A DNA stretch of 32,000 nt, from NCBI GenBank assembly GCA_041657425.1, contig JBBABY010000007.1, forward strand, positions 1-32,000. The letters are read 5' to 3'. This stretch comes from an archaeon (GTDB taxonomy: Archaea > Iainarchaeota > Iainarchaeia > Iainarchaeales > CSSED10-239). Numbering within the stretch: the stretch's first letter is position 1; each line of letters begins with the position of its first letter. This document shows positions 18,142-31,524 of this stretch, piece after piece. A model generated the notes under the pieces. That model ran no database searches, was not told where the DNA came from, and saw only the letters and a program-made list of their open reading frames with translations. The translations under genes were made by a program, and so were the position numbers.

Positions 18142-18235
18142 TCTTTTACATTCTATTTTATTTCTTTTTTATTTTAATTCTATTTATAAAAATAACTGTT
18201 TATAAATTATATATCAGTTAAGACCTTTAATTAAT

Positions 18236-18308
18236 AGCCCGATAGTGTAGTGGCCAAGCATGCAAGGCTTTGAACCTTGCGACAGGAGTTCGAATCTCTT
18301 TCGGGCTA
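18236..18308 (+). tRNA. tRNA-Gln (anticodon UUG)
   Basis: Hand-folded cloverleaf: acceptor agcccga/tcgggct, D stem gtgt/gcat, anticodon stem caagg/ccttg with loop cTTTGaa, T stem aggag/ctctt with loop ttcgaat. It has an A1:U72 pair, as in archaeal tRNA-Gln. A TATA-like tttataaatta lies about 26 nt upstream. Confidence 0.9.
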
Positions 18309-18337
18309 TCAGTAAAGGCATTTAAAACAACCAAAAA

Positions 18338-18412
18338 GGGAGTGTAGCTTAGTCTGGTTGGAGCACCCGACTGATAATCGGGCGGTCGCAGGTTCGAATC
18401 CCGCCTCTCCCA
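18338..18412 (+). tRNA. tRNA-Ile (anticodon GAU)
   Basis: Acceptor gggagtg/ctctccc has a U6.U67 mismatch. D stem is gctt/gagc. The anticodon stem cccga/tcggg carries loop ctGATaa. T stem gcagg/cccgc has an A51.C63 mismatch, with loop ttcgaat. Confidence 0.8.
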
Positions 18413-18413
18413 C

Positions 18414-25035: not shown

Positions 25036-25110
25036 GGGGGTATAGCTCAGCCTGGTCAGAGCAGTGGTCTTATACACCAAAGGTCGCAGGTTCAAATCCT
25101 GCTTCCCCCA
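25036..25110 (+). tRNA. tRNA-Ile (anticodon UAU)
   Basis: Acceptor gggggta/ttccccc has a U6.U67 mismatch. D stem is gctc/gagc. The anticodon stem gtggt/accaa carries loop ctTATac. T stem is gcagg/cctgc with loop ttcaaat. A TATA-like tttttataaaag lies about 20 nt upstream. Confidence 0.85.
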
Positions 25111-25171
25111 CCTTTGGAATTTTTCTTAAATAAATATCTTTAAAAACATATTTCTAATCTATTTCATTAAT

Positions 25172-29512: not shown

Positions 29513-30211
29513 ATGCCAAGACCAAAACCCGGTTGTGAAAAAGTACCACTAGGGAAAGGACATTTCATACAAGGCAAAGATATTTTTAAAACAGAAATTG
29601 CAACAATTGAATTACCTGAATGGAATAGACATATTGAAATATCAGAAAATAGAGAAAAAGATGTAACAAATATTAATTTTGAAAAATTAAAAAGAATAAT
29701 TGTTGCAATGGCAAAGAAGAAGGGAATGACTCCTTCTGAGTTTGCTTCAAAAACTGTTTTTGAACATTCTCATATCGGAAATATTGTTCCAAGTGAAGGC
29801 GACCTTGCTACACTTATTGCATTGAATTTAACTTGGGGTTTTGAAAAAGCGAAGATCTATAGAGTTGACGGAAAAACAAAAAAGATAATAGGGCATTTGG
29901 AGTTAAAATTTAATTTTGATAAAAACATACTTTCTAAATTAAAGCATGATCCTGCAGATATTAAAAAGAATTTACCGAATCTAAAACAAATAGGTATCCC
30001 AGTAAATACAATGGGGTTATATGTTGGTATTTGTGAGGCAGTTGATAATTATGTAACTGCAGTAAAATTACAAAAACCAAGTTGGCCAAAAGATTACACA
30101 AAAAAATATGCAAATATGCTAGTTCTTCAAAAATTAGGATTTGAATATAAGTTTGTTCCAGCAGAAGGATATAATATTTTAGATGAGGATATGGATTTTC
30201 ATAAAATCTAA
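29513..30211 (+). CDS. Hypothetical protein with a JAB/MPN-like metal motif
   Basis: FEHSHIGNIVPSEGDLATL resembles the JAMM/RadC signature HxHx7SxxD, but with a 6-residue spacer. No other motif is recognised. Confidence 0.5.
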   Translation: MPRPKPGCEKVPLGKGHFIQGKDIFKTEIATIELPEWNRHIEISENREKDVTNINFEKLKRIIVAMAKKKGMTPSEFASKTVFEHSHIGNIVPSEGDLATLIALNLTWGFEKAKIYRVDGKTKKIIGHLELKFNFDKNILSKLKHDPADIKKNLPNLKQIGIPVNTMGLYVGICEAVDNYVTAVKLQKPSWPKDYTKKYANMLVLQKLGFEYKFVPAEGYNILDEDMDFHKI

Positions 30212-30216
30212 GTATT

Positions 30217-30419
30217 GAGTTGTACACAATATGTGTACAGCTGAAATTAATGAAACTGTGACAATTTGTCACGAGTTGTCCCCAATTTGGGTACAACTGA
30301 AACTAATTGTTAGATAGCTTTAAAAAAAAGTGAGTTGTCGACAATTTGTCGACGGTTGTGATTAAGGATTATAATTTGAGTTGGTGACAATTTGTCACCA
30401 GCTGTACGATAAAATCGTA
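30217..30419 (+). repeat. Array of five covarying hairpin repeats (consensus GAGTTG-arm-CAAtTTG-arm'-CAGCTGAAAtTAA) plus one extra hairpin
   Basis: R1 is 30217-30255, R2 30258-30272, R3 30273-30308, R4 30332-30367 and R5 30378-30404. A further hairpin tacgatAAAatcgta is at 30405-30419. See the first finding for the arms. Confidence 0.85.
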
Positions 30420-30571
30420 TAGTTGATTTTTGATTTTGTGAAATCTCGATACCTTTAAATTCAAATTTCAAAAATACAAAGAAAAGTAGATAAAACCCGC
30501 ACTGGACAGCTACCCTCCCGAAAATAACCCTTCTTACAAAAACAATATATTTGCAATGGGAGGTTGTTTTT

Positions 30572-31408
30572 ATGGAGGTAAATAATTCAGTTGCTATTTT
30601 TGAAAGCAAAAAAATAAGAAGATTGTGGCAGGAAGAAGATTGGTGGTTTTCTGTAGTTGATGTGGTTGAGGCGTTGACTGATAGTCCTTTTCCAAAAACT
30701 TATTGGAGGAAATTAAAAGATAAAGAATTTAATGAAATTCAACCGTACCCGATTTGGGTACCGTTGAAATTAGTAGCTGAAGATGGAAAATTAAGAGAAA
30801 CAGATTGTGCAAATCTAGAAGGGATATTTAGAATAATCCAATCTATCCCTTCTCCTAAAGCAGAACCTTTTAAACTATGGTTAGCAAAAGTAGGTTATCA
30901 AAGAATTGAAGAAAACTATGATCCAGAACTAGCAATCAACAGAGCAATGAGTACATATTTAAAAAAAGGATATTCAAAAGAATGGATAAATCAAAGATTG
31001 AAAACAATTGAAGTTAGAAAAGAATTAACTGATGAATGGAATAGATCAGGAATAGATAAACCCTCTGACTTTGCATCGTTAACAAATACTTTAACAAAAG
31101 CTTGGTCAGATAGAACAGTTAAAGAATATAAAGAATTAAAGCATTTAAAAAAAGAAAATCTAAGAGATAACATGACTAATATTGAACTAGTTCTTAATCT
31201 TCTAGCAGAAGCAACAACAACAGAAATTTCAAAAGTTGAAGAGCCGAAAGGATTTTTTCCAAGTGAAGATGTAGTTAGAGCGGGTGGAGAGATAGCAGGT
31301 AACACAAGAAAGAATATAGAGAAGAGACTAGGCAAAAGTGTAATCAGTTCAAGAAACGCAAAACACCTTTTAGAAGAAAAGAAAAAGAATCAAAATTTAA
31401 TTAAATAA
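30572..31408 (+). CDS. Bro-N domain protein (antirepressor/DinD-like family)
   Basis: AIFESKKIRRLWQEEDWWFSVVDVVEALTDS is the Bro-N motif. It is followed by FRIIQSIPSPKAEPFKLWLAKVGYQRIEE and LKKENLRDNMTNIELV. I prefer the ATG at 30572, with GGGAGGT at 30558-30564, to the TTG at 30551. Confidence 0.75.
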   Translation: MEVNNSVAIFESKKIRRLWQEEDWWFSVVDVVEALTDSPFPKTYWRKLKDKEFNEIQPYPIWVPLKLVAEDGKLRETDCANLEGIFRIIQSIPSPKAEPFKLWLAKVGYQRIEENYDPELAINRAMSTYLKKGYSKEWINQRLKTIEVRKELTDEWNRSGIDKPSDFASLTNTLTKAWSDRTVKEYKELKHLKKENLRDNMTNIELVLNLLAEATTTEISKVEEPKGFFPSEDVVRAGGEIAGNTRKNIEKRLGKSVISSRNAKHLLEEKKKNQNLIK

Positions 31409-31411
31409 CCT

Positions 31412-31524
31412 CACTAATTATGGGGCGCGTCTTGCGCCAACCCGCCGAATGATATATATATATATATATATCGGTTCTCTTTTTTATATTAATTTAATTA
31501 ATTAACTAATGGAGATGATTAGAA
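31412..31524 (+). promoter_or_regulatory. Conserved upstream module, copy B: GC-rich box, (AT)10, TATA-like element, SD
   Basis: It aligns with 24062-24170. The local hairpin ggcgcgtcttgcgcc is at 31423-31437. Confidence 0.6.
31452..31471. repeat. (AT)10 dinucleotide microsatellite between the GC-rich box and the TATA-like element
   Basis: g-atatatatatatatatatat-cgg here; the paralogous position 24102-24109 has (AT)4. Confidence 0.9.

Follow-up and report, generated by a model that had tools for sequence, protein, structure and literature searches.

A coding palindrome held at one codon of the Bro-N / PDC-S13 family and its non-coding copies upstream of an archaeal member

Towards the end of a 32,000-nucleotide (nt) stretch of archaeal DNA (contig JBBABY010000007.1 of assembly GCA_041657425.1, here called the window) lies a gene of the Bro-N / PDC-S13 family, which encodes 278 amino acids on the forward strand (30572 to 31408, with the ATG at 30572). 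The gene contains a palindrome, both arms of which are translated, and six palindromic units of the same kind stand in the intergenic gap in front of it. About 240 homologues, found in bacteria, archaea and prophages, have a palindrome at this codon; the arm sequence varies between relatives, while the arms stay complementary. The palindrome, as a dyad or a cruciform, may be a DNA-level cis-acting site for the product of the gene itself, and the intergenic units, called orphans below, may be extra promoter-proximal sites. This reading is held tentatively, with somewhat less than even confidence.

The palindrome in the gene family

In the window, the genic palindrome occupies 30731 to 30775 on the forward strand (TTCAACCGTACCC-GATTT-GGGTACCGTTGAA), with arms at 30738-30750 and 30756-30768, and encodes residues Q57-L65 (QPYPIWVPL). 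Its hairpin has a folding energy of -10 kcal/mol (z = -4.3). At least 8000 homologues of the Bro-N protein were scored, all of them significant, and about 260 loci were sampled from bacterial and archaeal genomes, metagenomes and predicted viral contigs. Nearly every locus has a palindrome with arms of 10-14 base pairs (bp), centred on the codon that aligns with I61 of the window protein; its overall size across the family is 25-31 bp.

The covariation of the arms was assessed in an ungapped alignment of 95 distinct 45-nt segments. Standard pairs make up 91.3% of the cells, a share that falls to 24.5-34.4% once the 3' partner is displaced by 1-3 columns. Changes on both sides occur in 10 of the 11 pairs (345 cells). 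Shuffles have a covariation score of 0.23, and the observed score of 0.78 is reached by 0 of 500 of them. The original prediction, whose coordinates and sequences are all correct, had proposed from the copies in the window that complementarity rather than a fixed half-site is conserved. Since five or six copies alone are thin evidence of covariation, this claim is carried by the homologues, in which the equivalent position is palindromic at the DNA level with covarying arms. The 162 distinct sequences contain 25 different arm sequences; the inner six pairs have no mismatch in 135 of them, one mismatch in 25 and more in 2.

The encoded peptide has the form X1-X2-c-X2'-X1', in which at least five codons are forced into reverse-complement pairs. 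That complementary codon pairs dictate the peptide had been suggested from the window, and the homologues bear this out with V/H (GTG-CAC), V/N (GTT-AAC), Y/V (TAC-GTA), S/G (TCC-GGA), S/R (TCG-CGA, and TCT-AGA in Chondrinema), F/K (TTT-AAA) and L/K (CTT-AAG); T/C (ACA-TGT) and H/V (CAC-GTG) also occur. Even the centre codons form reverse-complement pairs: AAT (65) and ATT (19), AAA (57) and TTT (3), AAC (9) and GTT (1).

As judged by sequence comparison, the genic palindrome is ancestral in the family. Members at 42-60% identity, from two domains of life, nearly all keep it, and it also persists in a sister architecture whose C-terminal domain is different. The sole loss seen is in a plasmid homologue from Candidatus Chlorohelix (L181, 42% identical), in which the palindrome and two residues are missing (AEGFAEGIEPLKLKSADGK). 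A phage or plasmid origin of the family was considered and rejected, its members being rare in both collections (4 and 22 records).

Paralogues with different alleles can occur together. At least 11 plasmids of one Chondrinema litorale strain each encode a BRO-family paralogue bearing the palindrome (L182, L191, L192). These paralogues differ from the window protein in their C-terminal domain, and each has its own allele; several directly follow parA-parB, and one stands near a replication initiator gene. This placement hints at a role in replicon maintenance or identity. In locus L113 (305-1444), a full-length copy is preceded in tandem by a truncated N-terminal Bro-N fragment of 91 amino acids, which has a palindrome of its own and a different allele. 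The next gene there is an open reading frame (ORF) of 848 amino acids, which by eye is helicase- or restriction subunit-like.

Strict pairing, probably at the level of DNA

The kind of pairing bears on the molecule in which the palindrome acts. Where the Leu codon at position -3 and the Gln codon at +3 are free to vary synonymously, TTG-CAA occurs 39 times and CTG-CAG 26 times, while the wobble combination TTG-CAG and the mismatch CTG-CAA are both found 0 times. The third base of Glu or Gln at -4 and the first base of Leu at +4 form A-T or G-C in 157 of 157 sequences, without any G·T. In the 95-segment alignment G·U accounts for 8 of 1045 cells, and complementarity extends to a centre of 1-5 nt. 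This strict Watson-Crick pairing, with wobble nearly absent, therefore points to DNA or to templated copying, and not to an RNA fold. Selection on an RNA fold should have left room for G·U, notably at free third positions in A+T-rich genomes, so its absence argues against RNA. Read in this way, the sequences point to a constraint at the DNA level, be it a duplex dyad, a DNA hairpin or cruciform, or the copying of one arm from the other. An attempt to choose the folding strand from mismatch asymmetry (G·T 8, A·C 29) was abandoned, as the counts are confounded by amino-acid replacements at pairs 7-8.

Orphan units in the window

The intergenic gap holds six palindromic, non-coding units (30208-30425). 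Five had been predicted and all five are real; the sixth, TACGATAAAATCGTA at 30405-30419, had been seen just as the 'YDK' tail of the fifth. The units had also been thought to fill the whole gap. In fact they cover just 30212-30425, and 30426-30571 is a separately conserved promoter/leader block. They have neither promoter nor ORF, lie in the orientation of the gene and, as originally described, fall in three reading frames, some of them with stops. They match the gene over some 9 nt on their 5' side and some 14 nt on their 3' side, and have GAGTTG and CARCTGAAATTAAT flanks. The spacing of the units is irregular (56, 59 and 46 nt), and their sequences differ.

A covariance model was built solely from the genic palindromes of the homologues and then run on the window. 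It gives 40.2 bits to the genic palindrome and recovers the units of the window, two of them partially (30336-30354 and 30258-30272), and nothing else in the 32 kb; the next best match has 15 bits (E = 0.11). An independent view of the array is given by the pattern GAGTTG-N4-CAATTTG-N4-CARCTG, which is found at 30217, 30273, 30332 and 30378 and has 5 matches against 0.03 expected from shuffles. Every unit folds as a DNA hairpin, with z-scores of -3.1 to -5.2 against shuffled controls.

All six units, R1 to R6, lie on the forward strand. R1 (30208-30252) reads AGTTGTACACA-ATA-TGTGTACAGCT, with the 3' flank GAAATTAAT, and would translate as ELYTICVQLKLM, a peptide that occurs as a genic allele in P0002/L170. 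It scores 38.4 bits (E = 1.7e-7) on the forward strand against 18.5 bits on the reverse strand, and its hairpin has -7.5 kcal/mol (z = -4.1). R2 (30258-30272, GTGACAATTTGTCAC, z = -3.8) is a core only, of the VTICH allele; this core is the same as that of R5 and abuts the GAGTTG of R3. The latter (30271-30308, GAGTTGTCCCCAATTTGGGTACAACTGAAACTAAT; 28.5 bits, 11 of 12 pairs) is a hybrid allele, SPIWV, with a left arm of the S..G type and a right arm of the Y..V type, and this hybrid is genic in P0035/L171. R4 (30332-30366) has the core GTCGACAATTTGTCGAC, the STICR allele and a degenerate outer stem; it is orthologous to U1 in L175 and to the STICR orphans that L170 and L189 carry. R5 (30378-30404, GAGTTGGTGACAATTTGTCACCAGCTG) is another VTICH unit, with 25.2 bits and z = -4.95. 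It has a CAGCTG linker in common with R6 (30399-30425, CAGCTG-TACGATAAAATCGTA-TAGTTG, core 30405-30419, z = -5.2), whose allele, YDKIV, is genic in L175 and L184 and which lines up with the third unit in the arrays of L175 and L189.

The original prediction had noticed that the intergenic units mimic the genic peptide. The alleles which they encode (YTICV, SPIWV, STICR, VTICH and YDKIV) are exactly those in the genes of the closest relatives. Transcription terminators were considered and dismissed upon inspection, as no T-run follows the orphans.

Orphans and putative promoter region in other loci

The covariance model was also applied to 261 other sources, in the flanks of which no copies are found besides those in the gene or just upstream of it. 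Eight further loci have orphans upstream, all on the strand of the gene. Three are archaeal, namely L175-L177 (2-3 units), L189/L190 (1+2 units) and L170 (1 unit). The others are L076 from Paludibacter (4 units), L052 from Paceibacterota (2 units), the metagenomic L095 (2 units) and L128 (1 unit), and L270 on an IMG/VR contig (1 unit). Most loci are without orphans. Some orphans, in L095, L128, L076 and L270, lie within 20-130 nt of the ATG. The resident allele has a cognate orphan in L270, L052 and L189 and a nearly cognate one in L076.

The archaeal arrays are homologues of one another. R4, R5 and R6 of the window (STICR, VTICH, YDKIV) line up, in this order, with the units found in L175 and L189; in L170 and L189 a collapse of the array has left one fused unit, and three contigs with protein P0006 have identical arrays. 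Between R5 (GGTGACAATTTGTCACC) and its orthologue in L175 and L189 (GGTTACAATTTGTAACC), GGTGAC...GTCACC is replaced by GGTTAC...GTAACC, a compensatory G-C to T-A change in a non-coding unit. The STICR core is the same in four lineages, the flanks of which diverge. Complementarity is therefore kept in the non-coding copies too.

The archaeal arrays are followed by the block TTTTGTGAAAT..., then by GCACTGGACAGC...CCGAAAA, then by the ATG. In the window, the region between array and ATG (30426-30571, forward strand) holds the block TTTTGTGAAAT... (30429-30480), a TATA-like box, TTTAAAT, near 30455, and the block GCACTGGACAGCTACCCTCCCGAAAATAACCC (30508-30540). It is conserved in L161, L162, L170, L175 and L189, and its role as promoter/leader is suggested by this conservation; the two blocks probably make up a promoter and a structured leader. 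Both are duplicated in front of the YhcG/DUF1016 gene in the loci with such an insertion (L170, L189). CCCTCCC could pair with GGGAGG just 5' of the start codon. A separate perfect palindrome, TCACCAATATATTATTGGTGA, stands a few nt before the Bro-N start codon in related loci (L162 2985-3000; L175 2905-2925; L170 1765-1785; L178 1058-1078; L189 2475-2495) and is absent from the window.

The Bro-N / PDC-S13 protein

The encoded protein matches Pfam Bro-N (6.6e-11) and, over its full length (residues 1-273), the PADLOC family PDC-S13 (PDLC04920, E = 1.7e-120). PDC-S13 is a candidate defence family, for which no defence function is described in the open-access literature searched. The PHROGs match is to a family of unknown function, an NCBIfam match to DinD (residues 137-219) is weak, and a search of solved structures by sequence gave no meaningful match. 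In the AlphaFold2 (AF2) model (predicted local distance difference test, pLDDT, 86), strands at 7-27 are followed by helices at 28-35 and 41-54, a beta-hairpin at 63-81 and a helical C-domain. The loop at 55-62 has lower confidence, and the palindrome residues 57-65 form the loop and the start of the wing. The top Foldseek matches are chains of the DdrC homodimer of Deinococcus (E 8.5e-7 to 1.8e-4; 10-12% identity, modest template-modelling scores). The model suggests a DdrC-like winged-helix DNA-binding dimer, in which helix 41-54 would be the putative recognition helix. DdrC itself is a winged-helix DNA-binding dimer that senses DNA breaks (PMC11347143, PMC9303277).

A hypervariable module

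The palindrome is the right-hand part of a hypervariable module (30665-30768, forward strand; residues ~32-65) that comprises helix 41-54 (nt 30692-30733), the loop and the palindrome. The arm type is nearly independent of the remaining protein. With backbone identity computed outside residues 45-69, the same arm type is shared by 11-14% of pairs at 60-70% identity, which is the chance level, by 34% at 90-95% and by 72% above 95%. DNA alignments of near-identical backbones (93-95% identical) with a swapped block (L034/L120, L037/L159, L170/L169, L126/L158, L112/L134 and L108/L153) show that about 110 nt are replaced, from about -96 to +13 around the centre of the palindrome, between flanks that are 85-100% identical. 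In six independent pairs the exchanged block ends on its right at the palindrome's 3' foot. No case was found among the aligned pairs in which the hairpin alone is switched. Sharp boundaries of a hairpin-only cassette were sought among the closest archaeal relatives and rejected, because the sequence 5' of the hairpin is also divergent.

The same block encodes a helix of the form 'xxYWxxLKxx', and the two residues after YW (46-47) predict the arm type almost perfectly. SD goes with Y[DE]IV (35 of 39), RK with the VTCH type (28 of 29), KV or RV with VTCN (30 of 32), NA or SA with S[HQ]xG (17 of 17), and YR, YK or FK with STCR (8 of 8). Helix type uncoupled from arm type is never seen in 157 distinct sequences. 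The variation, as far as these comparisons reach, is one of discrete module types of helix plus palindrome, which are common to several phyla and shuffled onto backbones by recombination.

Rearrangement has also left traces at the units themselves. In P0016/L178 (1245-1300) an in-frame insertion of 21 nt adds a partial unit, so that two units are consecutive, VTNCNQL and then NDKILQLKL; this looks like a module replacement with its right-hand junction inside the old palindrome. Hybrid palindromes are joined at the centre, as in SPIWV (R3, P0035) and STICV (Chondrinema). The double unit, the hybrids, the fused arrays and the centre-codon pairs fit template switching at a DNA hairpin (PMC7202029).

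Possible roles of the palindrome

If the palindrome is a site for the product of its own gene, it would act as a dyad-symmetric duplex or as an extruded cruciform or hairpin, and its binding would bring about self-recognition or autoregulation. Placed beside the variable helix, the site would stay together with the protein in module swaps. The six units in the gap would be more sites of this kind, stacked immediately upstream of the promoter. The perfection of the arms is probably aided by templated quasi-palindrome correction during replication, which would explain the all-or-none complementarity and the reverse-complement centre codons (AAT/ATT, AAA/TTT). In favour of such a site, the orphans sit where operators would, on the forward strand and upstream of the gene, and a palindromic DNA site is found both within the gene and next to it, as in the parS-in-parB type of arrangement. 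The original prediction had offered an operator array or a 5' leader. The operator is favoured here, at the DNA level; the leader is unlikely with units that lie upstream of the promoter/leader block, and the absence of G·U disfavours an RNA fold.

Several points weigh against this reading. PDC-S13 is only a candidate defence family, and DdrC itself is not sequence-specific (PMC11347143, PMC9303277). Complementarity covers all 10-13 positions of each arm, a longer stretch than dimeric proteins usually read, and pairing extends to positions that are free to vary inside a single module type (AACTG...CAGTT, AGTTG...CAACT); pairing along the full arm suits structure or templated conversion better than a classic operator. 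The coupling of helix and arms is explicable by physical linkage alone, because the two lie 30-60 nt apart in a block too divergent for internal crossovers. The orphans raise further difficulties, most of them being non-cognate. The window, L175, L170, L095 and L128 contain no orphan of the resident allele, and a sequence-specific autoregulator would not obviously need non-cognate orphans. They are present at 9 loci among the 261 sources searched, and their function is therefore dispensable.

The same evidence can be read in other ways. The ~110-nt block might be a portable specificity module, in which a recognition helix and its cognate palindromic target are encoded back to back and inherited or exchanged together, and the orphan array a panel of target sites for other module types. 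On this account, which seems improbable, the module would exist as a dozen or more ancient types common to bacteria and archaea, and the orphan targets, for example those of paralogues or incoming elements, would tie the expression of the candidate defence gene to the Bro-N specificities in the cell. The original prediction had also proposed that the orphans are silent donor mini-cassettes, a reservoir from which the five residues of the genic palindrome are replaced by non-reciprocal gene conversion or template switching across the linkers GAGTTG and CARYTGAAATTAAT. The anatomy of this proposal stands: the promoterless, ORF-less orphans share conserved flanks and orientation with the gene, their alleles differ from the resident one and are exactly those of the closest relatives, arm type turns over far faster than the backbone (34% shared at 90-95% identity), and recombination at the level of units has left the double unit of P0016/L178, the hybrids SPIWV and STICV and the fused arrays of L170 and L189. 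The exchange itself does not follow it. The exchanged segment of ~110 nt includes the upstream helix, which is absent from the orphans, helix and arm types are never uncoupled in the 157 sequences, and the same turnover is seen without orphans at most loci. Some orphans are identical to the resident allele (L270, L052), the three P0006 contigs have identical arrays, and the 23 ORFs scanned in the window include no recombinase or reverse transcriptase; donor cassettes are thus unlikely. Another possibility is a recombination hotspot, in which forks stall at the hairpin or cruciform, or SbcCD or Mre11-Rad50 cleaves it, and conversion of the adjacent module is thereby stimulated, with the palindrome sequence hitch-hiking. 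The right edge of the block at the 3' foot in six independent pairs, the P0016 junction inside the old palindrome, the hybrids joined at the centre and the fit of a DNA-structure requirement with strict Watson-Crick pairing all speak for it. Its probability is nevertheless low: the block is not centred on the palindrome, unlike a break-induced conversion tract, its edges coincide with the resumption of amino-acid conservation, arms of 12 bp are short for SbcCD-type cleavage, and the orphans are left with no role.

It is also conceivable, although doubtful, that the palindrome has no function. It would have arisen in a tolerant loop and been kept by template switching in replication, that is by quasi-palindrome correction, while the reading frame forbids its deletion and the orphans are by-products. 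All-or-none complementarity (135 of 162 perfect in the inner pairs), the lack of wobble, the centre codons in reverse-complement pairs, compensatory change in the non-coding orphans and the position in a loop which the model places at the surface with low confidence (residues 55-62) agree with this. A like argument has been made for the coding palindromes of Nematomorpha (PMC6649704), and the mechanism is documented in E. coli (PMC7202029). Against it, one fixed codon is kept across the family, over two domains and the sister architecture, orphans recur upstream in gene orientation in unrelated phyla, with their order conserved in the archaeal arrays, and template switching alone leaves the arrival of 40-nt copies at the promoter region unexplained. 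Selection for an RNA hairpin, either as an mRNA stability or translation element or, in the array, as a leader with structure or as the origin of a small RNA or antitoxin like those of type III toxin-antitoxin systems, is very unlikely. Stable hairpins are formed, in which the A/U-rich loop is conserved and the stem varies, and an array of ~35-nt units directly upstream of a possible toxin-like defence gene resembles the ToxI-ToxN layout. The lack of G·U at cost-free synonymous positions, and its scarcity overall, contradict this, as does pairing up to a centre of 1-3 nt, too close for the bases of an RNA loop to pair; the conserved promoter/leader block lies between the orphans and the gene, the repeats differ from one another, and there is no Rfam match. 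Finally, a mobile palindromic element, of the repetitive extragenic palindromic (REP), bacterial interspersed mosaic element (BIME), Rickettsia palindromic element (RPE), MITE (a miniature transposable element with inverted repeats) or attC type, could have inserted in-frame into the gene and into the spacer, where short palindromes are clustered with conserved structure and variable sequence. This is extremely unlikely. The copy in the gene is ancestral and its position is fixed, neither the 32 kb nor the flanks of the 261 sources hold a further copy except just upstream of the gene, an attC would be longer than the units and have RYYYAAC/GTTRRRY motifs, which they lack, and no gene for an integrase or a REP-associated tyrosine transposase (RAYT) is nearby. 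The earlier suggestion of a hairpin that colonised the ORF accordingly finds no support as a recent event, with the same codon used in bacteria and archaea and no other copy in the window.

Comparison with known systems

No described system matches; tprK, parS within parB, attC, REP and invertons each share one feature and fail others. A description of the Bro-N/PDC-S13 palindrome was not found in open-access full-text literature, although a prior description elsewhere is possible. The closest described phenomenon is that of the coding palindromes of nematomorph mitochondria (PMC6649704). These too are perfect inverted repeats in functional coding sequences, with both arms translated and codons that pair in phase, and imperfect intermediates are lacking, which suggests active arm-to-arm conversion. 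Nematomorph repeats reach up to 284 bp, are scattered over many genes and are gained or lost between species (PMC6649704), whereas here a single palindrome of 25-31 bp occupies one fixed codon, with many discrete alleles and upstream non-coding copies. Quasi-palindrome template-switch mutagenesis, documented in E. coli (PMC7202029), plausibly accounts for concerted arm change and for the flipping of the central triplet. It is a mutational process rather than a system, and leaves positional conservation and upstream copies unexplained.

Another likeness is to tprK of Treponema pallidum, an expressed gene with a hypervariable segment and adjacent short, silent, non-identical copies with short conserved flanks (PMC7593977). 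An expression site and promoterless partial copies with shared flanks are present here as well, but mosaic variation of donor size is not. The same likeness extends to vlsE and to pilE/pilS, which undergo segmental gene conversion of the tprK-like kind. In the present family the exchanged block is larger than the orphans, hairpin-only replacement is not seen and most members have no array; these antigen systems, in turn, have no counterpart to the palindromic nature of the units.

The parS site within spo0J/parB is a dyad-symmetric site inside the gene of a DNA-binding dimer, where it constrains the encoded peptide. The palindrome likewise lies inside its own gene, and the Chondrinema BRO paralogues adjoin parA-parB. 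However, the sequence of parS is conserved, whereas here it is hypervariable and solely the complementarity is conserved, and binding is putative. Integron attC sites are 57-141 nt long and imperfect, with extrahelical bases, R''/L''/L'/R' boxes and RYYYAAC/GTTRRRY cores; they need IntI and sit at the 3' ends of cassettes. Conserved structure with variable sequence and arrays in the same orientation are common to attC and the window units. The latter are near-perfect palindromes of 25-31 bp with AGTTG...CAACT feet, they have no attC hallmark, and no integrase is found among the 23 ORFs of the window that were scanned. REP/BIME, RPE and MITE elements exist as many dispersed copies of conserved sequence, which is not the case here, as the arm sequence is not conserved. 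ToxIN-like type III toxin-antitoxin systems have tandem, near-identical repeats of ~36 nt, which are co-transcribed with the toxin, a terminator lying between them; the window units differ, their spacing is irregular and a promoter-like block intervenes.

At the level of the protein, DdrC is the closest fold to the model, with a winged-helix N-domain, a helical C-domain and a homodimeric state. It differs in having 10-12% identity, in sensing nicks and breaks without sequence specificity and in that no palindrome is reported in ddrC. DinD of E. coli offers a weak likeness by NCBIfam over residues 137-219. Intragenic invertons are inverted repeats in coding sequences that recode the protein on flipping (bioRxiv 10.1101/2023.03.11.532203), and the centre codons here occur in both orientations; the spacer, however, is 1-5 nt, no invertase is nearby, and flipping is deduced from comparison between species.

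Genomic surroundings

The window is a housekeeping stretch of an A+T-rich, DPANN-type archaeon that encodes IleRS, aIF2-gamma, aIF5B, thermosome, L7Ae and RpoE. The closest relatives of its Bro-N protein carry the labels archaeon, Woesearchaeota or Nanoarchaeia, and the contig index searched for population variants has no record of the exact protein; the matches listed from a metagenome scan are mostly distant relatives. A scan of 23 ORFs of the window found no recombinase, integrase, reverse transcriptase or Cas gene, and no RAYT gene is nearby. Explanations by a diversity-generating retroelement, integron, invertase or transposase were rejected, as no matching gene is among these ORFs.

In the Rfam scan of the window, only three tRNAs reach the gathering score, and the palindromic units match no family. 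The tRNAs are a predicted tRNA-Ile with the anticodon TAT (25036-25112), and tRNA-Ile(GAT) and tRNA-Gln(TTG) at 18235-18413. Upstream of the array is an ORF of 232 amino acids (29513-30211, forward strand), the stop codon of which lies 6 nt before R1. This ORF has no match in Pfam, NCBIfam, PADLOC or PHROGs, and holds the slot that the YhcG/DUF1016 gene has in related loci. Directly after the Bro-N stop codon comes a G+C-rich hairpin, GGCGCGTCTTGCGCC, and then an (AT)11 microsatellite (31418-31480). The pair is unusual for such an A+T-rich genome and may be a terminator or boundary element.

Significance

In a family that spans bacteria and archaea, a constraint at the nucleotide level, of DNA structure or symmetry, overrides the protein code. 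Reverse-complement codon pairs dictate at least five residues, the covariation at synonymous sites is perfect, and such cases are very rare. Annotation and selection analyses, such as those based on the ratio of nonsynonymous to synonymous substitution rates (dN/dS), will misread the palindrome region unless this constraint is recognised. PDC-S13 / Bro-N-DdrC-like proteins are abundant and uncharacterised, and the palindrome marks the edge of their recombining hypervariable module; the palindrome-less homologue of Chlorohelix could be a natural control. If functionless, it would be the best case in prokaryotes of templated conversion that perpetuates a coding palindrome. Should the palindrome be the target of its own protein, the family would have a built-in ligand, together with a natural library of more than 25 cognate pairs.

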